From the NCBI GenBank assembly GCA_964447285.1, contig CAYURO010000013.1, positions 16,029 through 80,028 of the forward strand: a stretch of 64,000 nt of DNA, in the 5' to 3' direction. This stretch comes from an uncultured Enterobacteriaceae bacterium (lineage in GTDB: Bacteria; Myxococcota_A; UBA9042). The position numbers and the translations under genes were made by a program. Below the pieces are notes generated by a model that worked only from the letters and a program-made list of their open reading frames with translations, was not told the DNA's origin and did no database searches. Below are positions 2,880 through 36,497 of this stretch, piece after piece. Within the stretch, counting starts at the first letter, position 1. The number at the start of each line of letters is the position of its first letter.

Positions 2880-4934
2880 CTACCTCTTCAGCACATCCGC
2901 CACCTTCCGCGCCAAGGCGTGGGGCGTGAAGGGCTTGGCCAAAAACTCGACGTGCGCGTCCAGCACACCGTGGTGCACGATCGCATTGTCGGTGTACCCG
3001 GACATGAACAGCACCCGCATGCCGGGGCGCTGCTGGGTCAGACGGTCTGCCAGCTCGCGACCGTTCATGCCGGGCATGATCACGTCCGTCAGCAGCAGCC
3101 GGATCGGTCCCGGGTGCGCAGTGCTCAACCGGACAGCGGCCGCGGGAGAGTTGGCCGACATGACGCTATAACCGCTGGATTCCAGGATCTTACGCGCAGC
3201 CTCAGCGACCAATGGCTCGTCCTCGACCAGCAGCACCGTGCCCTCACCGGCCTGTGGAGTCTGGCCGATACGCAGCGGCGCCGCTTCGACCTCGTCGCCC
3301 TCAGGTGGAGCCAGCGGGAGGTAGACGCGGAAGGTCGTTCCCTGCTCCGGCTCGCTATACACCGCGATGTCGCCTCCAGATTGCCGCACGATGCCGAAGA
3401 CGGTCGACAGTCCCAGACCCGTTCCCTTGCCGCGAGGCTTGGTTGTGAAGAAAGGCTCGAACACCCTGGCCTTCAGGTCGGCCGGAATGCCCACGCCCGT
3501 GTCGGACACCGCCAGCAGCGTGTAGCGACCCGGGGCCAACACCAGGTGAGAGGCCGCAAGTCCGTCCTGCACATCGACTTCTCCCACCTCGATGGTCAGT
3601 CGACCGCCGTCAGGCATGGCGTCGCGGGCGTTGACAGCCAGGTTGATGATCACCAACTCGATCTGATTCGGGTCGGCGCGCACGGGTCCGACGTCCTGCG
3701 TGCAGAAGGTGCGCAACTCGACGTCTTCGCCGATCAGGCGCCGCAACATCCCCTCCAGCCCCAGCACGACCTTGCGCAAGTCCAGGTTCACCGGCTGCAG
3801 CACCTGCTGGCGACTGAAAGCAAGCAGTTGGTGGGTCAGCTTGGCGGCGCGCTCCGCAGCTTCGCAGATCTGTTCGAGATCCTCGCGGTCCTGCGTGCCC
3901 TCGGCGCGCTCGTCCGCCATCATGCGGGCATAGCTCAGGATGGCCGTCAGCATGTTGTTGAAGTCGTGCGCCACGCCCCCCGCCAACCGCCCGATCGCCT
4001 CCATCTTCTGCGCTTGGCGAAGCTGCTCCTCGCTGCGGCGCAGGGCCTCCTCTGCCTTGACGCGCTCCGCGCTCTCTCGGCGCAGCTCGGTGTTCGCCTG
4101 CTCGAGCTCGACCGTCCGCTCGCGAACCCGCGCCTCCAGATCCTCGTGAGATCGGCGCAAGACCTCTTTGGCCATGCGCTGTTCCGTGATGTCGTGGGAG
4201 ATACCCAAGAGGTACTGCGGCTGCCCGTGGTCGTCCAGCAGCGGTACCTTGCGCGTGTGTAGCCAGCGCTCTCCGGACGCCGTGGCGATCCGCTCCTCCG
4301 GGATGTCGACCACCTGCTTGCCAGCCAGCGTCTCGCGGTCACGCTCTACGAAGAAGTCCGCTTGGTCCTTCGGAAAGAAATCGTAGTCGTTGCGCCCCAG
4401 CAGCGCGTGTCGCGACTGACCCAACAGGTCCTCTCCGGCGCGATTGAAGCGAACAAAGCGCAGGTTCTCGGCTTCCTTCAGGAAGATCATCGAGGGCACG
4501 TTCTCGAGGATCGAGTCGAGGAACCGGTTTGCTTGCTGCACGGCTTCTTCGGCCTGGTGCCTCGCCTCGACGTCGCGCACCACCACGACGCCGCCCAGCA
4601 GCTTGCCGTCCGCGTCGCGCCACGGCTTGCCCGACGCACTGATCCAGCGGCCGCGAGGCAGCATCGCGTTGCGCACGAACAGATCGAAGTCGTTCGTTTC
4701 CTGGCCGCGGATCGCGCGCATCAGCGGCAGTTCGTCCACGGGCAGAAGCGTCTTCATGTCCAGGCCGTACAGACCGTACGCCAAAGACCACGCCTGCATC
4801 GACGCGTCCCGCTGCCCCACGCCGATCAACCGCTGGGCCGCCGCGTTGAAAACAAGGATATTGCCATCGATGTCAGCGGCGATGACCCCGTCACCCAAGC
4901 TCTCGACCATGGTACGCAGCAGCTTGGCTTCCAT
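2880..4934 (-). CDS. Cytoplasmic hybrid sensor histidine kinase (PAS-PAS-HisKA-HATPase-REC)
   Basis: Two PAS domains, [11 protein letters not shown]-box, NARDAM N-box, FEPFFTTK and GTGLGL motifs, C-terminal receiver (LLTDVIMP...KPF). Confidence 0.95.
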
Positions 4935-24521: not shown

Positions 24522-25322
24522 CTAACCGACCTTGGGCTCGTCTTCAGTCGGCACGGGCGCGGCGACGGGCGCGGCGTCTGCGACATCGTCGGCATGACCG
24601 TGCCGGGGCTGACCTGGATTGTGGCCGTTGGGGAAGAGGAGGTCGTACTCCTTGCCGTGCCGCTCCTCCAACTCTTCCGCCGTCAGGAATCCGGTGACCA
24701 TCGTGCGGTCGAGCGGGAACACTTCCGGTGAGAAAATCGCCCCATACGCGTGCCACACGATCAGCACCAAGAACGCGAGCATGGCCTCGTTCGAGTGCGC
24801 CATGCGTGAGGCAGGGATGACCTGACCAGGCAGGAACTCGGCAAGCAGGCCCGGATACATCAGCACCAAGCCCGAAAAGATCATCACGAAGCCGCCCAGC
24901 ACCATACCCAAGTACTCGAACTTCTGGCGGTAATCGAACTTCGGGTACTTTGGTGGATGCTTGCGGTAGCCCAAGTACCACGCCATGGTCGCCACGACGT
25001 CGCGCAGGTCCTGCGGCACCGGCACCATCGAGAAGCGCATCTTGTGAAGCAGCACGCCTGCGATGAACAGCAGCAAGTGCGCACCGGTGTGGACGGCGAA
25101 GACGACGCCGGCGACACGGTGGAAGAAGCGTGCCTGATCGAGACCGCCGAACACCTGCAACAGCCACGAAGCCCAGGTCGCCTCGTAGAACTTCTGCGGA
25201 AAGCCGGTCAGCACGAGCATGGCAAAGGTCAGGATGACGACGATGTGCTCAACGCGGCGGAACGGCGAGAACCGCTCGACCAGCACGACGCCGTCAGCTC
25301 TGCGGAGAATCTTGGTCGACAT
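24522..25322 (-). CDS. Di-heme cytochrome b membrane subunit (FdnI/HydC-like, CbcL C-terminal type)
   Basis: ERFSPFRRVEH, LTGFPQKF, HRVAG, KFDYRQKFEY, HSNEAMLA and VWHAY; four TM helices with His ligands. Confidence 0.88.
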   Translation of the reverse strand: MSTKILRRADGVVLVERFSPFRRVEHIVVILTFAMLVLTGFPQKFYEATWASWLLQVFGGLDQARFFHRVAGVVFAVHTGAHLLLFIAGVLLHKMRFSMVPVPQDLRDVVATMAWYLGYRKHPPKYPKFDYRQKFEYLGMVLGGFVMIFSGLVLMYPGLLAEFLPGQVIPASRMAHSNEAMLAFLVLIVWHAYGAIFSPEVFPLDRTMVTGFLTAEELEERHGKEYDLLFPNGHNPGQPRHGHADDVADAAPVAAPVPTEDEPKVG

Positions 25323-25340
25323 GACGCCTCCAGGCGAGGT

Positions 25341-26504
25341 TCAGCGGTGGGTCCGGATGCGCCACAGGTGCAGCAGGATGTGGATGACCAGACCGAGCAT
25401 GATGAAAGGAATCAGCAGGCGATACGCCCACTTGATGCCCCACACCAGCGGAGCGGCCTCCAGCGTCGGCGGGTAGTGGCTCATCCAGGCGTCGGCGAAT
25501 GCGTCCGGCACCTTCTTGTGGCACTTGCGGCACGTGTCGGCCACGCGCTTGCGGGTGGCTTCAGGGCTGGACCCCTCGACCCCCTTGGCGATGTCGTGGA
25601 TGCCGTGGCAGTCGGTGCAGGTGGCAATCGGCTTGCCGGGGATGCCTGCGCCCTGGGCATAGAGTCGGTTCGAGGCGCCGTGGAAGTCGTCGAGATAGGT
25701 GGTCAGCACGTCCGAGCTGAGGCCGTACTTGCTCATGACCTTCTCGTCGCCGTGGCACCGTGCGCAGACTTGGTAGGACCGCACGTGAAAATCGCCCTTC
25801 TTGGGATTGGCGATCGAGTGCGCGCCGTGGCAGTCGACGCAACCAGGCACGTCGGGGTTGTTCTCCGCCAGCGCCTTGCCGTGCACCGAGCTCTTGTACT
25901 TCTCGTACAGCTTGGTGTGGCACTTGGCGCAGCTGGCGTTCATCGCCGACCGGGGCGTCTTGGGGTCCGACGGACTCTTGGTCGCGTGACTGCCGTGGCA
26001 ATCGACGCAGGTCGGCGCGTCCTTGTTGCCCTTCTTCAGCAGGTCGTAGTGGCTGCTGTCGAGCACGCGCGTGTAGTACGCGTAGTGGCAGCGCTGACAG
26101 GTCACGGCCCGCTCGAGCGTATAGTCGCGGGCGGTCTTGGCCTTCAGTTCCGGGTGGGGATGGTCCGTGATTTCGCGGTGGCAGTCGGTGCAGGCGATGC
26201 GGCCACCGTGAACTGAACCGCCCCATACCTTCTCGTCGACGTAGACCGACCGCTCGGTGCCGTCGGCAAACGTGATCGTGTCACCGTCGCTGGAGTGGCA
26301 CTCCATACACGGCTCGGTGCCTGCCTTGACGGCGGCGGGGTCGGAAGGCTTGGCTTTTTCGACCGCGGCGGCTGGCGTGCCGGCAGGCTCGTCGGCAGCG
26401 AATGCCGTCGATGCGAGCAGAAGGACAGCCACCGCGGGAAGACCAACCAGGAGCAGGGAGCGCGCGGCCCACGTCTGGGCGCTGCGAGGAGACTCGAGTG
26501 TCAT
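25341..26504 (-). CDS. Nonaheme c-type cytochrome with signal peptide and C-terminal membrane anchor
   Basis: Nine CxxCH motifs (CMECH, CTDCH, CQRCH, CVDCH, CAKCH, CVDCH, CARCH, CTDCH, CRKCH), SVHG repeats and a C-terminal TM helix. Confidence 0.92.
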   Translation of the reverse strand: MTLESPRSAQTWAARSLLLVGLPAVAVLLLASTAFAADEPAGTPAAAVEKAKPSDPAAVKAGTEPCMECHSSDGDTITFADGTERSVYVDEKVWGGSVHGGRIACTDCHREITDHPHPELKAKTARDYTLERAVTCQRCHYAYYTRVLDSSHYDLLKKGNKDAPTCVDCHGSHATKSPSDPKTPRSAMNASCAKCHTKLYEKYKSSVHGKALAENNPDVPGCVDCHGAHSIANPKKGDFHVRSYQVCARCHGDEKVMSKYGLSSDVLTTYLDDFHGASNRLYAQGAGIPGKPIATCTDCHGIHDIAKGVEGSSPEATRKRVADTCRKCHKKVPDAFADAWMSHYPPTLEAAPLVWGIKWAYRLLIPFIMLGLVIHILLHLWRIRTHR

Positions 26505-26529
26505 CAGGCACCTCGGGAAGCGGGGAAGC

Positions 26530-26949
26530 TCACTTCTCGTCGTCGCGGCGGGCCTTCACCTCGTCGCGCAGGTCGCTCAGGGCGGCGTCCGGCGCGGGCT
26601 TGGCGTCGGCGGGGGTCTCAGTCGTGTTCTTCAGGTAGGACGTCGTGGGCTCCCAGCGCATGACCGCCAGATGCGCCGTGTCGCCGGTGAGGCCCGTGAC
26701 CTGCCGCCAAGCGAAGCGGCCCAGACCGACCACCGCCAGCAGGACCACGACCGCCGGGAAGGCCATCACGAAGACGCCACCGAGCACGGGGGCCATCGCA
26801 ACCATCAGCAGCGTCGGGATGCGGCGGTACTCGGCGCCGGTGCGGCCGTCGAGGGTCTCGTCGTCGGCACCGACAAACCGGACGTCGAAGGGCTTCGTCG
26901 AGACGTACACACCGTAGGTCACCTTCTGTCCGCTGTTCCAGGTCTTCAT
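26530..26949 (-). CDS. Small hypothetical membrane protein leading the cytochrome operon
   Basis: AGGAG RBS; hydrophobic hairpin (PTLLMVAMAPVLGGVFVMAFP...); co-directional with the cytochrome genes with a 25-bp gap. Confidence 0.75.
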   Translation of the reverse strand: MKTWNSGQKVTYGVYVSTKPFDVRFVGADDETLDGRTGAEYRRIPTLLMVAMAPVLGGVFVMAFPAVVVLLAVVGLGRFAWRQVTGLTGDTAHLAVMRWEPTTSYLKNTTETPADAKPAPDAALSDLRDEVKARRDDEK

Positions 26950-27055
26950 GGCTGTCTCCTTTACTCGTCAGGGTGCGCCACCGCTTGTTGGGTGGCTTCT
27001 GAGGTCAGTATGCGGGGGGACGAGGCAGCGCGGTATGCGGAAGAAGACTCAGTAG

Positions 27056-27077
27056 GCCTAGGAAAAAGTACCTAGGC
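27056..27077. promoter_or_regulatory. Perfect 7-bp inverted repeat, candidate response-regulator operator
   Basis: GCCTAGG-AAAAAGTA-CCTAGGC, overlapping a TAGGCCTA palindrome, between divergent units and about 45-65 bp upstream of a minus-strand CATACT -10-like box (27007-27012). Confidence 0.5.
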
Positions 27078-27221
27078 AGTCGATTTGTGTCACTCAGGCG
27101 AACGAAGGTGCTTGGAGCGGAGCAGCGAAAGGGCCGGGCGGCAACGCGCCGAGCGTCGCCTATCCTGACGGGCTTTCCGTCTGCCGACAAGCAGGCTACA
27201 AGGCAGCCGCGGGGGGTCGCC

Positions 27222-28190
27222 TTGGTCACGGAGCTGCTCACAGCCAACGTCATCCACGGGCTCGTCGCTCTGGGGTGGGCGTTCGGCGTCGAGCGCATGG
27301 CTGGTCCATGGACGGCTTCGGCGAAAATGCGCCTGTATCAGCTTGCCTTGGCGTTGCCCGTCGTCGTTCTGCTCCTGCGCTTGCTGGGGGTACCGCCGTT
27401 TCCTGACGGTTTGCGACTTGTGCGTGTCGACGTCTGGGCGGGCTGGTTGACCGGCGGGGGCATGGAAGTCCAGGTGCCGATGACGATCCTGTTTGGCGGC
27501 ACGGCGGTAGTGTTCGCCGTGCAAGAGCTGGCCCCTTTCTGGCAGCGCCGACGCAAGCCGCGGGGCGCGCCCCGCGCGCCCGACCAGCGCTTGGAAGCGA
27601 CTCTACTACAAGTGCGCCATATCTATGCGGAAATTGGCGTGCGCCTGCCTCGCGGCAACCGAATCCTCGCCCGCCGGATCGAGACGGACCAGCCTACCGC
27701 CGCCTTGCATGGCCTGCGCCACCCCACCCTGCTGGTGTCACGCAAGCTGTTGAATACCCTGGATGATGACGAACTGGCGGCGGTGGTGGCGCACGAACTG
27801 GCCCACGCCGCGACCGGTGGCAGTCTGGAGCTGCTGGCCATGTGGCTGCTGCGCGCCCTGCAGGCGATGAGTCCGGCTGCGCTGGTGGCGTTTCGACATC
27901 TGGTCGAAGTGCGAGAGGAGACGTGTGACGCACTGGCTGCACGCGTCACGGGGCGTCCGGCGGCCTTGGCCTCCGCGCTGCTGTCCGTCCATGACGCGTC
28001 CGGTCCGGCCCGCGAGTCAGCCCACTTGGTGGACCGTGCCCGCGACGAGGTGCTGCGCCGGGCGGAGCACGCGTCGACCCGCGACCGGGTCAAGGCGCTG
28101 CTGGCGTGGCGACTTGAGAAGGGGCACACGGCGCTGGGCCCGTGGTCAGCGATGCTGGTGTTGGGAGGGCTGCTGTGGACCATCGGCTGA
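27222..28190 (+). CDS. M56/M48-family membrane zinc metallopeptidase (BlaR1 protease-domain-like); start uncertain
   Basis: TM helices, PTLLVSRKLL...LDDDELAAVVAHELAH (HExxH), EETCDALA...PAALASALL. Confidence 0.8.
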   Translation: MVTELLTANVIHGLVALGWAFGVERMAGPWTASAKMRLYQLALALPVVVLLLRLLGVPPFPDGLRLVRVDVWAGWLTGGGMEVQVPMTILFGGTAVVFAVQELAPFWQRRRKPRGAPRAPDQRLEATLLQVRHIYAEIGVRLPRGNRILARRIETDQPTAALHGLRHPTLLVSRKLLNTLDDDELAAVVAHELAHAATGGSLELLAMWLLRALQAMSPAALVAFRHLVEVREETCDALAARVTGRPAALASALLSVHDASGPARESAHLVDRARDEVLRRAEHASTRDRVKALLAWRLEKGHTALGPWSAMLVLGGLLWTIG

Positions 28191-28711
28191 AGGGTCTGTG
28201 GCGCGGCGTGCGCGTTCTTGCGTGGACCACTGTCCTGGCGGGGACGCTGTGGACGGTAGACCGCGGCATGTTCGGGCCCACTGCGCCCAGGGGCTGGCAG
28301 GAGGCCGCGACGCTGCAGACCATCCCCGTCACCGCCGGCCGTGCTGTCGTTCCGGGCTATTTGCCAGCAGGCTGGCAGTGGCCGCCGGCTGCCTACTGGC
28401 GCAAGGACCCCACCCCCGGCTGGTGGTGGCAGTCTGGCCCCGCTGACGCCCCAGAGACCCGACTTTGGCTGGGAACCGGGGGCTTGCCTGCTCCTCCCGC
28501 CATGGGCAACGCCGGAAGCTGTCTGGGAACTGCCCCGGGTCAGCGCTGCCCCAAGGGTTGGCACCTGTTCTCGCGCAGCTTGGGCAACGGACAGGCCGCC
28601 ACCGGAAGCGCGGGCGACCGCGTCGTGTGGATGGTGACCAACGCCGACCCGACCGAGGCCCTGCGGGTGCTGGACGGGCTGCCGACCTCGCGCGAGGGCG
28701 TGGCCCGCTGA
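28142..28711 (+). CDS. Hypothetical membrane-anchored Trp/Pro-rich protein (start uncertain)
   Basis: ORF overlapping the end of the peptidase gene; N-terminal hydrophobic segment; VVPGYLPAGWQW motif. Confidence 0.55.
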   Translation: MVSDAGVGRAAVDHRLKGLWRGVRVLAWTTVLAGTLWTVDRGMFGPTAPRGWQEAATLQTIPVTAGRAVVPGYLPAGWQWPPAAYWRKDPTPGWWWQSGPADAPETRLWLGTGGLPAPPAMGNAGSCLGTAPGQRCPKGWHLFSRSLGNGQAATGSAGDRVVWMVTNADPTEALRVLDGLPTSREGVAR

Positions 28712-28721
28712 GGGCCGGAAA

Positions 28722-29393
28722 CTACTCCATCGGCAGCAGCCCAACCTTGATCGAAAACTGGATCAGCTTGGATCGATTGTGGATCCCCAGCTTGTCCATC
28801 AGATTGACCCGGTGCGTCATCACGGTCTTGATGGCCAGGTCCAGTGAGCTTGCGATTTCCTTGTTGCTCAGCCCTTCCGCAATCATCTTCAGGATCTGCT
28901 TCTCGCGCGGTGTCAGGCGGCCGTACGCCTCCTCTGACGCTGCAGCGGTCGACTCCTGACCTTGCGGCTCACGGGTGAAGAACACGCTGGCGAGGCTGGG
29001 GTCAATGTACGTACCACCGGCCAGAACCGCCCGAATCGCCACCAGAAGTTCTTCTCCGCGCGCCGACTTCAGGATGTAGCCGTTGGCCCCAGCTTCGAGC
29101 AGCCGTCGCAGGTAGATCGACTCGCTGTACTGCGTCAGCACCAGGATCTTGCTGCGCAATTCGCGCTTGCGGATCTCGATGGTCGCCTCGAGGCCGCCCA
29201 TCCCCGTCATCGCCAAGTCCAGCAGCAGCAGATCGGGTCTCAGCGACTCGACCAACGCCACGGCCTCCTCACCCGACGAGCCCTCTCCCACCACGTGGAT
29301 CTGCAAGTCCTTCTGCTCTTCCAGAAAGGCGCGCATCCCCACCCGCAGCACCACGTGGTCATCGGCGAGCACCATGCGGATGTTCTGGCTCAT
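28722..29393 (-). CDS. NarL/FixJ-family response regulator (REC-LuxR HTH)
   Basis: LADDH, LLDLAM and YILKS; C-terminal LTPREKQILKMIAEGLSNKEIA...KTVMTHR. Confidence 0.95.
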   Translation of the reverse strand: MSQNIRMVLADDHVVLRVGMRAFLEEQKDLQIHVVGEGSSGEEAVALVESLRPDLLLLDLAMTGMGGLEATIEIRKRELRSKILVLTQYSESIYLRRLLEAGANGYILKSARGEELLVAIRAVLAGGTYIDPSLASVFFTREPQGQESTAAASEEAYGRLTPREKQILKMIAEGLSNKEIASSLDLAIKTVMTHRVNLMDKLGIHNRSKLIQFSIKVGLLPME

Positions 29394-31840
29394 GCGTTCT
29401 CCTTGGCGGGTTCCTGAGACGCAGGCGGCTGCGTCTCGGTCGAATGCGGCAACGGCACCGACACGTGGATCGTCGTGCCCTGACCGGGCTTGGTGTCGAA
29501 CGTGACTTCGCCGCCCAGCAACCGAGCGCGCTCCTGCATGCCGACCAAGCCCAGACCGTGGTCCTCGTGCTGTACCGCAAGGGCTTGCACCCGCTCGACA
29601 TCGAAGCCCACGCCGTCGTCCTCGATGGTCAACTCGACGCGATCCTTCAGGTAGGCCACCGTGACCAGCGCGTGCTCCGCCTGCGAGTGCTGCACAAGAT
29701 TACCAAGTGATTCCTGAAAGATGCGGAACAGCGTCACGGCCATCTCGCGCCCCAGCTCGATCTCGTCGCCGTCGACCTGCAGGCTGCCGCGAATCGAGTG
29801 GTCACGGCCAGTCCGTTCGAGGTACCACTGCAGTGCCGGCAGGAAGCCCATCGTGTCCAGCACCGACGGCCGCAGGTCCAACAGGATCCGCCGCACCGTG
29901 CCGAGCATCTCGTGCGCGTTTTCCTCGAGACCGCGCAGGCGCGCTGCGACCTCAGGCGAGTTGCCCTCTTGATTGGCCACCCGCTCCAACGCCAACCGCA
30001 AGGCCGCCAAATCTTGGGCGACCGTGTCGTGCAGCTCGCGGGCGACGCGACGACGCTCCTCTTCCTGAGCGGTCAGCACGCGGTGCAGGAACTCCCGTCG
30101 CTGGGCGTGGCGAAGTTGGCGTTCCTGCTGAAACAATCGGCCGGTGGCGCTCAGGACGACGTGGCGCAGGACCGACTCCAGCCGACGCGCCTCTGTAAAC
30201 GGCCGGGGCTCGCTGGCGCCCAGCACGCACACCACCTCAAACCCTTGCGGCGTGGTCAACTGTGCGATGACGACGACACCCAGATTGCCGCGAATGAGAT
30301 CTTTGCCCGCGAAATCCTTGGGTTCGAACACGCTCATCCGGTAGACGATGGCCGGACTTGCGCCAGTGGCTGCCGTCGCGGCGCCGCCCATCGTGGGCTC
30401 GTTGGGGCGCGCAGGTTGGTCCAACAGCTCGCGCCAGCGCTCCACCAGACTTTGCGACTGGTCGTTCCCCAGCCCCCGCTTGGCAATGAACACGCGGCCA
30501 CGGTGCCCCATCTGCAGCGCGCCCGCGTCGAACCGCAAGAACTCCAGCAACTTGTCGAGCCCTTGGGCGGCCATCGCGTCGAGATCCAGCCCCTGCGCGC
30601 TGAACTCGGCCACTTCCTGCAGGACGACCAGATGGTGCTGGGTCAGGCGGACCTCATGGCGCAAGGCGGCCCGGTGACGTTCAACCTCCTCCAGCGACTC
30701 GATCATGCCCGACCGCCAGCGCTCCAGCGTCCGGGCCAGAATGCCCACCTCGTCGTGGCCGAACGAAGGCAGCTCCATCCGCTGCTCACTGGACTCGGCG
30801 TTGCGCACCGCACGGGTCAGGCGCGTCAGCGGCCGCACGACGCTGTGAACCGACAGACCGGTGAACGCCAGAAACAGCGGAATGAAGGTAAATCCCAACC
30901 AGAACAAGCGCTTCTGTAGGGTGAAGGCCGGTTCCAGTGCCTCTTGCTCCAGCTGCCGCACCGCCACGCCCATGTCGAGCTTGGGCAGGGGCACGAACGC
31001 CAGCACCTCGACCTCGCGGGTCGTGGTCGACGAGTCGGCGTGACAGCTGTGGCAGCGGCTGCGGATCTCGGTCCGGGTCGCAATCGCGCGGGTCAGCTTG
31101 CCTTGGTGGTCTGCAGCGCGAAACAACCCTCCCGGCGCACTGGAGGCGACCACCGTGCCGCCAGCATCGACCAGCTGCAGGATCGTCGAGCTGCCCTGCC
31201 GCACGCCCTGCAACGTCGCCAGCAGGTTGTTCGATGCCGGGTTCAGCAGTCCGCCCACGTAACCTTGCACCGTGTTTTGGGTCCCTCCACGCAGGGCCTG
31301 AACGACGATGACGATGGCGCGCGGGCCCGGCGGCAGGTGGGTCAAGCGCGAGGCAACCGGCCCGTCGGTCTTGGCGGCAAGGGCCAGCACGCGGCGAAAC
31401 TCTTTGACGGCGTTCAGGTATCCAGCATCGTCCGGCACGGAAGCGACAGGCACCCCGCGGGCGTCCAGCACGAAGGCGCCCTCTTCGAACATCGTGTCGC
31501 GGTAAGAGTCCAGCGCGGTCCGCAGCGTCAAAGCTTCCGGAGTTCCGATCGCGGGCACCTTGGCAGGCACGCGGCTAGCCAACACGTTGACATCCCGACG
31601 GATAAGCAGTTCGAGGTAGCCGCCGGTCGCCTGCGCCAGATTGGTTCGCTCGGTCAGCAGCCGCTCAACCGAACCCTCGAGCATGATCCAGGACTGCACC
31701 CCCACCGCGCCCAGCAGCGTCGCGGACCCCAGCACTGTGAACAGCAGCGCCCGCGAGTACAGGCTGTGACGCCAACGGAACCGCCGAGAATGGCGCGGTG
31801 CCTTGGGCGCGGGCGTCGCGCTGGGCTGGGGTCCGGGCAT
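29390..31840 (-). CDS. Membrane sensor histidine kinase (Cache-like domain with CxxCH, HAMP, GAF-like, HisKA_3, HATPase)
   Basis: Two TM helices flanking a periplasmic domain containing CHSCH; HAMP DEVGIL; ERRRVARELHD; DDGVGF and GLGLVGMQERA; ATGA overlap with the regulator. Confidence 0.92.
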   Translation of the reverse strand: MPGPQPSATPAPKAPRHSRRFRWRHSLYSRALLFTVLGSATLLGAVGVQSWIMLEGSVERLLTERTNLAQATGGYLELLIRRDVNVLASRVPAKVPAIGTPEALTLRTALDSYRDTMFEEGAFVLDARGVPVASVPDDAGYLNAVKEFRRVLALAAKTDGPVASRLTHLPPGPRAIVIVVQALRGGTQNTVQGYVGGLLNPASNNLLATLQGVRQGSSTILQLVDAGGTVVASSAPGGLFRAADHQGKLTRAIATRTEIRSRCHSCHADSSTTTREVEVLAFVPLPKLDMGVAVRQLEQEALEPAFTLQKRLFWLGFTFIPLFLAFTGLSVHSVVRPLTRLTRAVRNAESSEQRMELPSFGHDEVGILARTLERWRSGMIESLEEVERHRAALRHEVRLTQHHLVVLQEVAEFSAQGLDLDAMAAQGLDKLLEFLRFDAGALQMGHRGRVFIAKRGLGNDQSQSLVERWRELLDQPARPNEPTMGGAATAATGASPAIVYRMSVFEPKDFAGKDLIRGNLGVVVIAQLTTPQGFEVVCVLGASEPRPFTEARRLESVLRHVVLSATGRLFQQERQLRHAQRREFLHRVLTAQEEERRRVARELHDTVAQDLAALRLALERVANQEGNSPEVAARLRGLEENAHEMLGTVRRILLDLRPSVLDTMGFLPALQWYLERTGRDHSIRGSLQVDGDEIELGREMAVTLFRIFQESLGNLVQHSQAEHALVTVAYLKDRVELTIEDDGVGFDVERVQALAVQHEDHGLGLVGMQERARLLGGEVTFDTKPGQGTTIHVSVPLPHSTETQPPASQEPAKENA

Positions 31841-31932: not shown

Positions 31933-33939
31933 TCAGCGCACGTAGAGGAAGCCGGACTGCCCCCAGCCCTGCAGGTTGTTGTAGCAACCGGGCCAGCTGG
32001 TGGTGTAGTTGCCGCCGTTATAGCCCTTGGCAATCGAGTAGATGATGTGGGGGCTGTGGTAGTTGTGGTCGCCGAAGTTGCAGCAGGCGTCGTCGGTGCC
32101 CGAGTAGGTCGCCCCGCCGTAGGTCTCGCTCCACGTCATGTTCTTGTCGCCGGTCGACGAGTTGGTGTTGAATTTGGCGATGGCGTCGATTTTGCCCCAG
32201 CGACTGGGCGTCGAGGTGCCGCAGGACAGCCAGAACTGGTCGGAATACAGACCGCGGATCAAGGCGTCCGACAGCTTGGCGCAGCCGGCTTGGTTGGGGG
32301 CGGTCAATGTCCCGGCGGCATTCGGGTCGATGTGGCAGTACGAGTTGCCAACGATGCGCGCCGCCAATGTCCAGCCGCCGCCATTGGTGGTCATGTCGCA
32401 GTAGGCCTGCACTGCCGTCGCTGTGCCGCCGTTGACCCAGTAGACGCCGTCCTTGGCCCCCGACATCTTGGTCAGGATGTCCTTGCAGTTCTTGCCGGGG
32501 TTGTTCTGCGTGCCGGGAATGTCGAGTGCCAGCGGGAAGAACCCGGTCCCGTTGCAAATATAGAGCGCCTTGTCCTTGTCATTCGCGTAGGCGTAGCCAA
32601 ACGTCGAGGCATCACACGTGACCGGGTGTTCTTGCGCGACCTGAAACTGGAAGCCGCCCGCCGCCTGGAACAGCCCGTTCGACCTGACCTTCTTGGACGA
32701 CAGCGTGGCGACCGACACGCTCCAACTGTTGATCTTGCCGTCCATGCCGTTGTTGAGGAACCCGGTGTCGATCACCTCCAAGTACCACTTTCCCTTGGGG
32801 TTCTTTCCGACCCAGGCGGCCAGGTCGCCAGACACGGTCTTGGTGGGCGAGGGCCACGACGTCTTGATGGCCGTTCCCTTGGCCGTCTTGTCCCACAGCA
32901 CGAACTTGGCGCCGCCCGGGTCGATGGCGCTGACCTTGAGACTCGCCGTGTCGCTGTTGGCGATGTCGGCCGTGATGGTCAGGCCCTGGGCCACGCCAAA
33001 ATCAGGCACGTCGACCGGGTCGCTGACGCCCACGGGGTTGTTGTCGGGGATGTTGACAGGGGCTTTCAGGCTCGCCGCCACCTCGTTGAATTGGTTGGTC
33101 AAAAGGTTGTTCGAGATCTCGTCCAAGCCGTCGGGCGGCAGCGCGGCCGGGTCCATCGACTTCACGCAGTCGTAAGAGCCGTCGTCCTTCACGCCCTTGA
33201 TGACCAGCCCCGTCCCGCACGCCGCGCCCACCTTGACCAGCACCGGCAACCCACTGAGATCACTGTACACACCGGATGTCGCCACCTTGGCAAGCTTGGC
33301 CGTCTGCGCGTACGACGACAGGTCCGGCGCGCCCTCGAGGTCGGCAAACGCACCCGTCGTCGCCACCGTCGCAAGGGCAGCCGTCTTGGCATAAGCGGCG
33401 AGATCCGCGGACTTGGCGTAGGTCCCAAGGTCAGCGGCCTTCGCGTACGCGGCAAGGTCCGCAGTCTTGGCGTAGGGAGCGAGGACCTGCGCATCGATCT
33501 GCCCCACGCCGATGCAGCCGGAGCAATCGAGACCCTCCGCAATCTGGGCGCGCAGTGCATAGGGGACGGAGTGCACCTTGGCGCGCTGCAATGCCGGGTC
33601 ACTGCCCACCTTGATCTCGAGCCAGGTCTCAGGAAGCTTGGCCAGCACCGTGGCGGGAAGCGGCGTGTACTTGCCGAGGACCTGCGTGAATCCGCCCCCC
33701 ATGATGGGCGTGCCCATGGGCCCCTCGGTCCAGATCGGCTGGCCGCCCGACTGGGCAGTGTAGAGCGAGACGACAACCTGATAGTCGCCATCGGCCGCCG
33801 GACCACCACCGGTCGAGAGCAAGCCGCCCTCCACCAGCACTGTGGACGGAATGGCGGCAGCCGCCAGCATCGGCAGCAGCAAACCGCAGACCGCAGCAGT
33901 CAGGGACAGCAAAACACGCGACAGCGACAGGAGCGACAT
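31933..33939 (-). CDS. Secreted fibre-like protein: conserved N-terminal domain, 9-aa repeats, P-domain, fibrinogen-like YCDMxxxGGGW tip
   Basis: Signal peptide; SVPYALRA; YAKxADLxx repeats; IPDNN...GKWYLEVID...INSWS (proprotein convertase P-domain-like); NCKDI...DGVYW...AYCDMTTNGGGWT. Confidence 0.8.
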   Translation of the reverse strand: MSLLSLSRVLLSLTAAVCGLLLPMLAAAAIPSTVLVEGGLLSTGGGPAADGDYQVVVSLYTAQSGGQPIWTEGPMGTPIMGGGFTQVLGKYTPLPATVLAKLPETWLEIKVGSDPALQRAKVHSVPYALRAQIAEGLDCSGCIGVGQIDAQVLAPYAKTADLAAYAKAADLGTYAKSADLAAYAKTAALATVATTGAFADLEGAPDLSSYAQTAKLAKVATSGVYSDLSGLPVLVKVGAACGTGLVIKGVKDDGSYDCVKSMDPAALPPDGLDEISNNLLTNQFNEVAASLKAPVNIPDNNPVGVSDPVDVPDFGVAQGLTITADIANSDTASLKVSAIDPGGAKFVLWDKTAKGTAIKTSWPSPTKTVSGDLAAWVGKNPKGKWYLEVIDTGFLNNGMDGKINSWSVSVATLSSKKVRSNGLFQAAGGFQFQVAQEHPVTCDASTFGYAYANDKDKALYICNGTGFFPLALDIPGTQNNPGKNCKDILTKMSGAKDGVYWVNGGTATAVQAYCDMTTNGGGWTLAARIVGNSYCHIDPNAAGTLTAPNQAGCAKLSDALIRGLYSDQFWLSCGTSTPSRWGKIDAIAKFNTNSSTGDKNMTWSETYGGATYSGTDDACCNFGDHNYHSPHIIYSIAKGYNGGNYTTSWPGCYNNLQGWGQSGFLYVR

Positions 33940-34031
33940 GGGAAGCCTCCGCAAGAACAGGTGCAGCAACGGCGACATACAGATGCCGACCGTAACAGCG
34001 CACACGTTTGCGGGCAATCGGAGCGTGCGGG

Positions 34032-36497
34032 TTAGAAGCTGTTGCCGATGGTGAACTCGAATACCAGCGGCCGCTCGTTGGCCTTGCGATTCAGGGGCAC
34101 ACCCCACTCAAACCGCAGGGGACCTACGGGAGAGAACCACCGCACGCCCCAGCCGACCGCAAGCCGCATGTCCTGGAGCGTGATGTCCTCCGCCTCACCG
34201 AACGCGTTGCCGACGTCGAAGAACAGCAAGCCGCGCAAGTTCATGGGCGCCTTGAGGATCGGCACCTCGATCTCGTTGTTCAAGTACAGCTGCTTGACGC
34301 CGCCGATGTTGAATCCCGACAGCGAGGACGCCGGGTCGCCGCTGTTGGGAATCGCGATCTCGGGGCCCAGCGTGTTCCGGTCAAAGCCGCGCACGTTGTA
34401 GATGCCGCCCATGAAGAAGCGCTCGAACAACGGCACCTGCTTGCCTTCCGGTGCCCGAATCAGGCCGCCGACCAGATTGAACTTCAGCACGCCATCGAAC
34501 GGCAGGGGCACGTAGCGGCGCACCTTGGCCGTGAAGCGATTGAACTCATTGTCGCTGCCCAGGAACTGCGCCGCCCACTCCGCCGCGCCCGACATGAACC
34601 AACCGGTGGTCGGGAACATGCGGTCGTCGCGGTCGTCATACGACAGGCTCATCCGCATCGACGAGGTCAGGCCGGACCCGAACAGCGAGGCGATCGGCAC
34701 ATCGGTGCGGCCAGAGAGCCCGCCGATGGACGTTGAGACTTCTTCGAGGTTGTAGCCCGCCTCTGCCGTGAGTTCGTCCGTCAGTCGATAGCCCCAGGAC
34801 ATACCGCCGCCGGTCGATTGGCGCGAGAAATCGGTGTAGAGCTGCTCATAGCTGAACAAATCCAGCGAGAACGTGACGTTGCTGTCCAGGAAGTACGGCT
34901 CGTAGAACGACCCCTGGAACATCGTGCGAACCGACGACAGCGAGCCCTGCACCGACATGCGTTGACCGCGGCCGAGGAAATTGTCCTTGGCGATCTGTGC
35001 CGTGACGATGAAGTTGTCGAGCGACGAGTAGCCCATGCCGACCTGGAAGGTGCCGGTCGTGCGCTCCTTGACGTCCACGACGACGTCCACCACCTGGGGC
35101 AGCGCAGTCGGGCGGGTCTTGATCTCGACGGACTCGAAGAAACCCAGACGCTGTACGCGGGCTTGCGACTGCTGGATGCCCTTTTCGCTGTAGAGCTCGC
35201 CCTCCGCGATCGTCAGCTCGCGACGGATCACCTTGTCGCGGGTCGAGCCGCCACCCTGCATCAAGATCTGGCCAAAGTAGACCTTCTTGCCCTTCTGGAT
35301 GTGGTAGGTCCAGTCGACGACGCGCTTCTCGACGTCCGGCACGCTCTCGTTCGACACCGTGGCGTGGGCATAACCGTAGTTCTTCTGCGCCCCTGCCAGC
35401 GCCTGATTGTCCTGCTGCACCAGCGCGTAGTTGAAGATGTCGCCCGTCTTCAGCTGGACCTTCTTCAGCATGTCCGGCAGCGGGTCCACCGAGTCGCCCG
35501 TGACGTCGAGCTTGCCCACGCGGAACTGCGGCCCCTCGTTCACCCGGATGGCGATCGAGATGTACTTCATGTCGGGCGACAGGCTGACGACCGGGTCCTC
35601 GACCTTGGCTTGGACGTACCCCTTGGTCAGGTACAGGTACTGGATCACCTGCAGGTCGTACTCCAGCATGTCGCGCTTGAAGTTCCCGGCTTTGCTGAGG
35701 ATGCTGAGGACCGACCCCTCCTGCGTCTTCAGCACCGCCTTGATCTCAGCGTCCGGAATGCCCTCGTTGCCCAGCAGCTCGATGCGGCGGACCTTGACCT
35801 CGGCGCGCTCCTTGATGTCGAAGACGACGCGGATTTGGTTGCCGCTCATCGGCTCGACCTTATGCGTCACGCTGGCAAGGAAGTAGCCCTCATCGTCATA
35901 CATCTCCTTGATCTTCACAGCGTTTCGCTGGGCGTCGGCTGGCGAGTACAGGTGGTTGACCTTCAGGTCCACGACCTTCAGCACGTCCTCTTCGCTTTGA
36001 TCCTCGTTGCCGCGGATGGTGATGGCCGCGATGCTGGGCCGCTCGAGCACCTGGAAGCGCACGACTACGCCGTCGTCGCCCGCCTTCTTCAGGCCGACGC
36101 GAACGTCGTCAAACAGGCCCATCTGGAAGATCCGCCGCAGGTCCTCGGCGACGACTGCGGGGTCCAAGAGACTGCCCACGACCGTGCGGATCTGCTTGCG
36201 CACCGCCTGCTCGTCGACTCGCTCGATGCCCGCCAGCTCCACTGCTTTGATGGTGGGACCCTTTGCGCCCGGCTCGTCCGGCACCTCTTCGCCGGCCGCG
36301 TCGTCCGTAGCCGCGTCGTCGGTGCCGGTCTCGTCCTGCGGCGCATCGCCCAGCGACCCGGGACCAAACAACGAATCCGACTGTGCCCAAGCGGAGTTCG
36401 CCGCTCCCGCGCCTGCCGCAAACACCAGCAGCACCAACAGCAGACGCAACAGCGTCTGGTCCGCGCGAGGCAACCGATGGACCGTTCCGAACGTCAT
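34032..36497 (-). CDS. bamA: Outer membrane protein assembly factor BamA
   Basis: POTRA domains, TRDKVIRREL, NFLGRGQ, VRGF, WFSPVGPLRF and terminal FEFTIGNSF. Confidence 0.96.
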   Translation of the reverse strand: MTFGTVHRLPRADQTLLRLLLVLLVFAAGAGAANSAWAQSDSLFGPGSLGDAPQDETGTDDAATDDAAGEEVPDEPGAKGPTIKAVELAGIERVDEQAVRKQIRTVVGSLLDPAVVAEDLRRIFQMGLFDDVRVGLKKAGDDGVVVRFQVLERPSIAAITIRGNEDQSEEDVLKVVDLKVNHLYSPADAQRNAVKIKEMYDDEGYFLASVTHKVEPMSGNQIRVVFDIKERAEVKVRRIELLGNEGIPDAEIKAVLKTQEGSVLSILSKAGNFKRDMLEYDLQVIQYLYLTKGYVQAKVEDPVVSLSPDMKYISIAIRVNEGPQFRVGKLDVTGDSVDPLPDMLKKVQLKTGDIFNYALVQQDNQALAGAQKNYGYAHATVSNESVPDVEKRVVDWTYHIQKGKKVYFGQILMQGGGSTRDKVIRRELTIAEGELYSEKGIQQSQARVQRLGFFESVEIKTRPTALPQVVDVVVDVKERTTGTFQVGMGYSSLDNFIVTAQIAKDNFLGRGQRMSVQGSLSSVRTMFQGSFYEPYFLDSNVTFSLDLFSYEQLYTDFSRQSTGGGMSWGYRLTDELTAEAGYNLEEVSTSIGGLSGRTDVPIASLFGSGLTSSMRMSLSYDDRDDRMFPTTGWFMSGAAEWAAQFLGSDNEFNRFTAKVRRYVPLPFDGVLKFNLVGGLIRAPEGKQVPLFERFFMGGIYNVRGFDRNTLGPEIAIPNSGDPASSLSGFNIGGVKQLYLNNEIEVPILKAPMNLRGLLFFDVGNAFGEAEDITLQDMRLAVGWGVRWFSPVGPLRFEWGVPLNRKANERPLVFEFTIGNSF

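Follow-up and report, generated by a model that had tools for sequence, protein, structure and literature searches.

A conserved seven-gene module of uncultured Myxococcota that may couple a putative haem-based sensor kinase to a CbcL-like cytochrome pair

CbcL of Geobacter sulfurreducens is described as combining nine c-type haems with a membrane-bound dihaem cytochrome b (PMC9129911), and homologues of CbcL have been reported in metagenome-assembled genomes of lake Myxococcota (10.1101/2022.03.26.485925). Among haem-bearing sensors, the single-Cache family sCache_heme (PF11845) carries a CxxCH motif that is inserted between strands beta3 and beta4. According to the corresponding report, this is the first Cache domain known to bind a cofactor covalently, and its signalling members behave like nitric oxide (NO) sensors rather than O2 sensors (PMC12889525). 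Here, we analysed a stretch of 64,000 nucleotides from an uncultured member of the Myxococcota (contig CAYURO010000013.1, positions 16,029 to 80,028; the whole stretch is called the window), in which seven genes at 24522-31840 encode a cytochrome pair, a small membrane protein, a peptidase with a tryptophan-rich partner and a two-component pair. An initial annotation of this DNA had proposed a dedicated circuit leading from a sensor to an electron conduit, and this proposal is supported in silico by the co-inheritance of the genes and by an inverted repeat that is conserved ahead of the cytochrome genes. Taken together, our data suggest, with moderate confidence, that the seven genes form a conserved respiratory control module of uncultured Myxococcota, in which a probably haem-bearing kinase would act via a regulator and an operator on a CbcL-like conduit and a proteolytic accessory complex.

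The genes and sequence elements of the module are as follows (positions of the window):

24522..25322, minus strand: cytochrome b subunit, FdnI/HydC-like, 266 aa; PF01292
25341..26504, minus strand: nonahaem cytochrome c (cytc9), 387 aa, with signal peptide and C-terminal membrane helix; nine CxxCH, multihaem Pfam families match
26530..26949, minus strand: small139, small membrane protein of 139 aa with a hydrophobic core, first gene of the cytochrome operon
27034..27052, no strand: second conserved box, TCGGG..CCCAG-like, weak in the window, spotted by eye in aligned upstream regions
27058..27075, no strand: inverted repeat CTAGG-N8-CCTAG, candidate operator, conserved upstream of the cytochrome operon
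27222..28190, plus strand: membrane zinc metallopeptidase, M48/M56-like, 322 aa; corrected TTG start, PF01435
28175..28711, plus strand: Wrich, Trp-rich, probably membrane-anchored periplasmic protein, 178 aa; adjoins the peptidase, AF2 model
28722..29393, minus strand: NarL/FixJ-type response regulator, 223 aa; Response_reg and GerE domains
29390..31840, minus strand: sensor histidine kinase, 816 aa; first transmembrane helix, predicted double-Cache domain, second transmembrane helix, HAMP, unassigned region, HisKA_3, HATPase_c
31040..31054, minus strand: codons for C263-H-S-C-H267, candidate haem c attachment site in the membrane-proximal Cache module

The leftward block comprises small139, cytc9 and cytochrome b. 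The peptidase and Wrich genes are read rightward from the intergenic region that they share with this block, and the regulator and the kinase converge on the peptidase/Wrich block. Open reading frames (ORFs) were called with a filter that keeps frames with GC1>GC2 and avoids antisense shadow ORFs. All seven ORFs showed GC3>GC1>GC2, which is what genuine genes should show in DNA of 66% G+C. The seven tightly packed genes of the initial annotation are all present with coding-type codon-position G+C, and its nonahaem cytochrome c, its cytochrome b and its pairing of a NarL-type regulator with a kinase carrying a periplasmic CxxCH were all confirmed. Two gene starts, however, were corrected. The peptidase most likely starts at TTG 27222 and not at 27087: its orthologues align only from residue 42-47 or so of the ORF that begins at 27087, and the upstream 41 codons lie in another frame in two genomes of the same genus. 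Since this start moved to 27222, the divergent intergenic region, which had been called short, measures 272 bp; its extent has changed and the divergence itself stands. For Wrich, the start is probably GTG 28175 rather than 28142, which gives a 16-bp overlap with the peptidase stop.

To follow the distribution of the module we searched 107 species genomes of the class with each module protein, used a 401-genome sample of Myxococcota as phylum set and mapped the fetched loci by tblastn with the seven window proteins. Orthologues of cytc9 were found in 15 of the 107 class genomes (E<=1e-111), and the next-best matches were fused forms of 33% identity (5e-46). The cytochrome b gene, which always comes after the cytochrome c gene, adjoins cytc9 in 14 of these genomes; in the 15th the contig ends first. 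Both small139 and the kinase sensor (residues 1-330) were detected in the identical 15 genomes, with one truncated sensor among them; a weaker sensor match was obtained in addition in G051. Full-length peptidase and Wrich are encoded in 13 of the 15 cytc9-bearing class genomes, next to each other in every case. In the phylum sample, the sensor profile matched 20 genomes at E<=1e-64 and one truncated sensor, with seven outside the class. Wrich was present in 19 of the 401 genomes, all of them sensor-bearing, and in none of the other 380.

The gene order of the window was seen in 11 genomes including this one (three cut or split by contig ends, one without detectable Wrich). The module recurs outside the class, and G254 keeps all seven genes in a rearranged order, in which cytochrome b, cytc9 and small139 diverge from kinase, regulator, peptidase and Wrich. 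Partial linkage was found in six genomes (G029, G206, G018, G079, G094, G379). Within single genera the gene set is present or absent as a block (present in four of the eight genomes of one genus). An alignment-based search for related loci (5-row alignment) returned six loci, all in genomes already found. The arrangement is far beyond chance because it recurs across Myxococcota families and, judged from its genomic distribution, the seven-gene set is a conserved module and not a chance neighbourhood. The gene-neighbourhood search proposed in the initial annotation was thus positive, and the peptidase pair and the kinase did not turn out to occur independently of the cytochromes in the genomes searched. 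The module is, however, not fully self-contained, as the initial annotation had called it. Members of the small139 family also occur apart from cytochromes, preceded there by the inverted repeat described below, and paralogous kinase/regulator pairs lie beside other respiratory enzymes.

The inverted repeat CTAGG-N8-CCTAG is perfect at 27058-27075, with 7-nt arms at 27056-27062 and 27071-27077, and in a two-half-site scan it was the only perfect copy with a spacer of 8 in the 4.55-Mb genome. We compared 19 upstream regions (12 divergent intergenic regions, five regions upstream of small139 without adjacent peptidase, the cytc9/peptidase spacer of G079 and the small139/kinase spacer of G254). 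The best spacer-8 match had no mismatch in six regions, at most one in 12 and at most two in all 19; the corresponding frequencies per region in 9500 mononucleotide shuffles were 0.02%, 1.3% and 15%. A credible repeat was found in 18 of the 19 regions, the best matches of G386 being GC-rich and judged unconvincing. In 16 of the 18 site-bearing regions, 91-142 bp separate the repeat from the start of small139; the value for G079 was measured from a point within cytc9.

When 593,413 bases (the window and 39 loci) were scanned at up to one mismatch, 18 copies of the repeat were detected. Sixteen of them precede a gene of the small139 family or, in the absence of small139, cytc9; three of these sixteen belong to paralogues far from cytochromes. 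Another copy is located between a NiFe hydrogenase operon and hypF beside a paralogous kinase/regulator pair, and one lies inside an ORF. Upstream of three stand-alone peptidase pairs the repeat was not found, and for this reason it goes with small139 and the cytochromes and not with the peptidase. The co-inherited GerE-type regulator may bind this repeat. The aligned upstream regions also revealed, by eye, a conserved second box between the repeat and the operon. A sigma-54 promoter was considered for this box and rejected, as the spacing does not fit.

The kinase carries HAMP, HisKA_3 and HATPase_c domains (Pfam) and its CHSCH motif (residues 263-267) lies between two predicted membrane helices. 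The kinase gene overlaps by 4 bp with that of the regulator (Response_reg, E 8.7e-24; GerE, E 3.3e-21), and a HisKA_3/HATPase_c kinase with a receiver-GerE regulator makes up a NarL/FixJ pair. Regulator orthologues are 55-68% identical and always lie beside the kinase. NarXL/LiaSR-type systems have the same transmitter and regulator families, and like them the module has an inverted repeat as candidate operator, as expected for a dimeric GerE-type helix-turn-helix (HTH). In contrast, sensor domain, operator sequence and target genes are different.

Cytochrome c maturation recognises CxxCH motifs in periplasmic domains. In 13 aligned sensors R-C-H-x-C-H and His245 (D-H, 18 residues upstream) are invariant, and CxxCH is present in 15 of 15 orthologues. 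From these sequence features, the kinase probably has a haem of its own. Residues 30-335 were modelled with AF2 (pLDDT 85.1) as a long helix with two PAS-like modules and the second membrane helix, and the top Foldseek matches of this model were dCache domains of chemoreceptors and kinases (PctA, DctB, TlpQ and similar; E down to 5.5e-11). The model thus predicts a double-Cache fold with the motif in the membrane-proximal module, where it occupies the end of strand beta3 and the beta3-beta4 loop.

A sensor profile search of 1.84 billion representatives yielded 1122 relatives at E<=0.001, 413 at E<=1e-10 and 150 at E<=1e-30; it superseded a word-indexed protein search with the sensor region, which had returned two proteins only. 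C-x-x-C-H is found at the aligned columns in 138 of 151 database relatives, nearly always as C-H-x-C-H. Among 50 sampled relatives we detected HAMP in 45, HisKA_3 in 41 and dCache_1 (E<=0.001) in 34. With sCache_heme (DUF3365/Tll0287; GSU0582, GSU0935) the kinase shares an extracytoplasmic Cache module with a conserved CxxCH between beta3 and beta4 that is fused to signalling outputs, and the local motif R-C-x-S-C-H-E-Q of several orthologues resembles the haem segment of GSU0582 (PMC12889525). However, the window kinase is predicted to be double-Cache with the motif in the membrane-proximal module, the second motif residue of its family is an almost invariant His, and PF11845 matched neither the 13 sensors (E<=10) nor the 50 relatives (E<=0.001). 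A PDB sequence search with the sensor gave no match at E<=1. Our literature search on haem-binding Cache domains retrieved only the report on the single-Cache haem family, whose supplementary datasets might include haem-bearing dCache domains, and a search on two-component control of multihaem cytochromes retrieved nothing. In the literature searched, this sensor subtype appears undescribed.

In related genomes, paralogous kinase/regulator pairs adjoin multihaem cytochromes of the NapC/NirT type, a NiFe hydrogenase and a cytochrome in which c and b parts are fused. This would fit a sensor family that serves respiratory modules. At L054:1-12609 (G006:C4) the genes for a NiFe hydrogenase (NrfD-like, iron-sulphur, small and large subunits, in one operon) and hypFCD are followed by a CHxCH double-Cache kinase (35% identical) and its regulator (60% identical), with a one-mismatch repeat at 4776 in the hydrogenase/hypF intergenic region. 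Distant kinase/regulator paralogues with CxxCH sensors at L055:359-4581 and L057:8333-12575 lie directly downstream of a NapC/NirT-family multihaem cytochrome of 445-450 aa, an arrangement reminiscent of ImcH-type quinol oxidases. In G004 the orthologous kinase (L017:3864-5675) has lost most of the distal Cache module and keeps the haem motif (CPTCH) together with the rest of the module.

The cytochrome b subunit matches PF01292 at E 1.1e-15 (58.3 bits vs a cut-off of 30.1), and formate-dehydrogenase gamma and hydrogenase cytochrome b models (NCBIfam) match below their cut-offs. In alignments of 15 orthologues, from which two near-identical genomes of the same genus had been left out, His26, His68, His82, His176, His191 and His222 of cytochrome b are invariant, and these residues lie within helices. 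Cytc9 has exactly nine CxxCH motifs, all of them invariant in this alignment, as are ten further His. The cytochrome c and b genes are two ORFs 18 bp apart. By these sequence features the pair has the architecture of a split CbcL-like inner-membrane complex, in which a nine-haem periplasmic cytochrome c held by one C-terminal helix joins a cytochrome b of the FdnI/HydC type. The comparison is one of described architecture: CbcL also has a nine-haem periplasmic domain joined to a dihaem cytochrome b of the FdnI/HydC kind (PMC9129911), and the ten extra conserved His of cytc9 fit bis-His ligation. Unlike CbcL, which is one polypeptide, the window pair is encoded by two genes and its c subunit has its own C-terminal helix. 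Moreover, the cytochrome genes of the window would answer to a two-component pair of their own; for CbcL, by contrast, constitutive expression is described (10.1101/2022.08.31.506072). The initial annotation had recognised no named system in this combination of genes, and for the cytochrome pair the resemblance to CbcL amends that view.

Fused c-b homologues with seven or ten haem sites occur in relatives. Outside the window, the same genome encodes a fused paralogue (G000:C1:258117-259754) with seven CxxCH followed by an FdnI-type cytochrome b in an open frame of 546 codons. Another family has, in two of its genomes, a fusion of about 765 aa (L025:5580-7868, L026:8594-10900) in divergent orientation beside the module kinase; this cytochrome is laid out as seven CxxCH, a cytochrome b domain and three more CxxCH.

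For small139 neither a Pfam nor an NCBIfam match was obtained. Among 15 orthologues P54, G57, F64 and P65 are invariant within the hydrophobic core and no His or Cys is invariant, so that small139 is unlikely to bind haem. Paralogues located far from cytochromes keep the inverted repeat about 115-135 bp upstream (L015:986-1529, L016:9219-9762, L021:9547-10084) and, because of this repeat, may be part of one regulon with the cytochrome operon. A tandem duplication of small139, read as a single ORF of 244-250 aa, characterises one family outside the class (L050:5573-6304, L051:417-1154, L052:19081-19830, L053:6044-6778).

The peptidase had initially been assigned to M56/M48. It matches the M48 model above threshold (PF01435, 34.8 bits vs a cut-off of 20.3). 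The M56 model PF05569 scored 28.1 bits, below its cut-off of 31 (one orthologue reached 32.1 bits), and we describe the protein as M48/M56-like. H191-E192-x-x-H195, E232 and D236 are invariant in 15 peptidases, and the best NCBIfam matches were HtpX models, all far below their cut-offs. Its partner Wrich has 13 Trp in the 189 aa of the ORF at 28142-28711 and matched no family in the domain libraries. A lead from an atlas (DUF4245, score 0.96) was rejected, as none of 15 orthologues matches such a Pfam model at E<=10. In the AF2 model of Wrich (pLDDT 87.7) a helix at the N-terminus precedes a domain of some 140 residues, and a W-P-P motif and two Cys are invariant among its orthologues. The best fold matches were the C-terminal domains of MucB (Z 7.4, root-mean-square deviation 2.8 Å over 89 residues) and RseB (Z 6.0). 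A PDB sequence search gave five matches with E 0.41-1.3, and at the level of sequence profiles the corresponding stretch of RseB was matched faintly, with E about 1.

Complex prediction for peptidase and Wrich gave an ipSAE of 0.71 compared with 0.19 for the best control. Of 157 solved complexes 116 reach this mark, compared with two of 215 mismatched pairs; these counts apply only roughly, as our own alignments were used. Between runs at least 96% of the contacts agreed, and the pLDDT of the partner did not fall below 76. It can be seen from the models that the interface is helix-to-helix in the membrane, with the Wrich helix packing against the first, third and last helices of the peptidase; both proteins are thus predicted to bind via their transmembrane helices. 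A fused peptidase-Wrich ORF in relatives was considered and rejected, the two genes being in different frames. The pair resembles BlaR1/MecR1 and HtpX in its layout: a polytopic peptidase exposes HExxH and, further downstream, E-x-x-(C/A)-D to the cytoplasm, and after it a membrane helix connects to a domain outside the cytoplasm. Unlike BlaR1/MecR1, the extracytoplasmic part is here a separate protein with a different fold, neither a penicillin-binding domain nor a BlaI-type repressor was found among the seven genes, and the M56 model stays below its cut-off. As for RseB/MucB, the periplasmic domain of Wrich superposes weakly on their C-terminal domain. However, Wrich (about 140 periplasmic residues) is without the LolA-like N-terminal domain, appears to be membrane-anchored and has no sigma or anti-sigma factor nearby.

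From these observations the following mechanism can be proposed. The kinase would hold a covalent haem c in the membrane-proximal half of its double-Cache periplasmic domain and would use it to sense either the redox state of the periplasm or a ligand of the haem, for example NO. It would phosphorylate the regulator, a dimer of which would bind CTAGG-N8-CCTAG about 100-140 bp before the small139 gene and turn on the cytochrome operon and the unlinked small139 paralogues. Small139 would be co-transcribed ahead of the cytochrome pair, and the latter would transfer electrons between acceptors in the periplasm and the menaquinone pool. The role of the peptidase and Wrich is the least certain part. 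The former, with HExxH at the cytoplasmic face, and the latter, with one membrane helix and an RseB-C-terminal-like domain, may form one membrane complex that resembles a BlaR1-type sensor-protease split into two genes. Such a complex could add a proteolytic layer, either in signalling or in turnover of a module component, for which small139 would be the obvious candidate. A more far-reaching combination, which we consider speculative and unlikely to be right in all its parts, would join two propositions. The kinase would belong to a large, undescribed second lineage of covalent-haem Cache sensors, with a double-Cache domain and the haem in its membrane-proximal module, which would act as periplasmic redox-potential gauges and choose the quinol oxidoreductase (CbcL-like, NapC/NirT-like, hydrogenase), and peptidase and Wrich would be a split BlaR1-like switch, whose RseB-like subunit senses a second envelope cue and whose substrate is small139, which would place the respiratory conduit under post-translational control.

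The signal read by the kinase could be a different one. The haem may sense a gas or another ligand such as NO, or the distal Cache may bind a small molecule while the haem is structural, and the operon would then serve detoxification or a stress response instead of selecting a respiratory route. We consider this rather unlikely, although the signalling members of sCache_heme behave like NO rather than O2 sensors (PMC12889525) and the distal module is the usual ligand pocket in the matched dCache structures. The neighbours of the paralogous pairs (hydrogenase, NapC/NirT-type and c-b cytochromes) point to electron transfer between quinone pool and periplasm, and none is an obvious NO-detoxifying gene. 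A ligand bound by the distal module fits poorly with G004, which lost most of this module and kept CxxCH and the complete gene set. It is improbable, too, that CHxCH is a metal site or a redox-active dithiol and not a haem site. Two additional invariant His (the second motif residue and that of the upstream D-H) could bind a metal together with the two Cys. On the other hand, a periplasmic CxxCH is what the cytochrome c maturation machinery recognises. Motif and flanks resemble the haem segment of GSU0582 and occupy the same topological place as in sCache_heme (PMC12889525).

For the peptidase pair and small139, a role as HtpX-like assembly or quality-control factors of the cytochrome complex, with no part in signalling, is doubtful but has more than a slight chance of being correct. 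HtpX models are the best NCBIfam matches of the peptidase, although far below cut-off, and the pair divergently adjoins the cytochrome operon in 14 of the 19 Wrich-bearing genomes. However, where the pair stands apart from the cytochromes (G018, G254) it sits with the kinase and the regulator and is not preceded by the operator. In two genomes the cytochromes are present and no pair was detected, and a domain like the C-terminal part of RseB, weak as the match is, would be more typical of sensing. Inherited synteny with no shared function appears very improbable. All genomes belong to one phylum and many are close kin, but the set outlasts both the rearrangement in G254 and its scattering over several contigs. 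Moreover, single genera either have it or lack it as a block, and it has a common cis element.

Returning to the proposed respiratory control module, several observations weigh against it. Module parts are on different contigs in three genomes of one genus, of which two are assembled as three separate contigs, and in two further genomes; on the locus maps G022, G011, G100 and G326 have their parts on separate contigs. Two cytochrome-bearing genomes (81% and 92% complete) have no detectable peptidase pair, in one genome no small139 precedes the cytochrome operon, and small139 paralogues occur away from any cytochrome. The co-occurrence counts overstate independence because the genomes are related. 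A promoter and terminator scan of 26900-27300 found none, and no sigma-70-like promoter was seen in the intergenic region. The link between operator and regulator has co-inheritance and the dimeric HTH type as its whole basis. The window kinase matches Pfam dCache_1 (PF02743) at E 0.0057 with 16.7 bits, below the cut-off of 45. The Z of 7.4 for RseB/MucB is in the range that the tool rates as common, and the peptidase-Wrich complex is a prediction and not a measurement.

How mineral- and humic-respiring bacteria sense the potential outside, and hence choose an inner-membrane quinol oxidase, is a question in extracellular electron transfer, for which the module offers a concrete candidate. Its kinase, with a probable haem of its own, appears to be tied to a CbcL-like complex via a recognisable candidate operator in abundant lake Myxococcota. 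With 413 sensor-family clusters at E<=1e-10, most of which have the motif, a second haem-Cache lineage is possible. The peptidase, Wrich and small139 families previously had no functional setting and are now tied to one context.

Just beyond the kinase, 31933-34107 (minus strand) encodes a protein of 724 aa that combines a P domain of the proprotein-convertase type with a fibrinogen-like GGGWT domain (NF040941, E 1.1e-14). It was not seen in the seven-protein synteny maps of related loci, and no search was made with this protein. The neighbouring gene at 34032-36497 (minus strand) encodes a BamA-type Omp85 protein with five POTRA repeats and is an ordinary gene. The stretch 24522-31840 is present in 20 metagenome runs from 13 studies (12 of the runs are possibly assembly sources), all of which are labelled freshwater or lake water.

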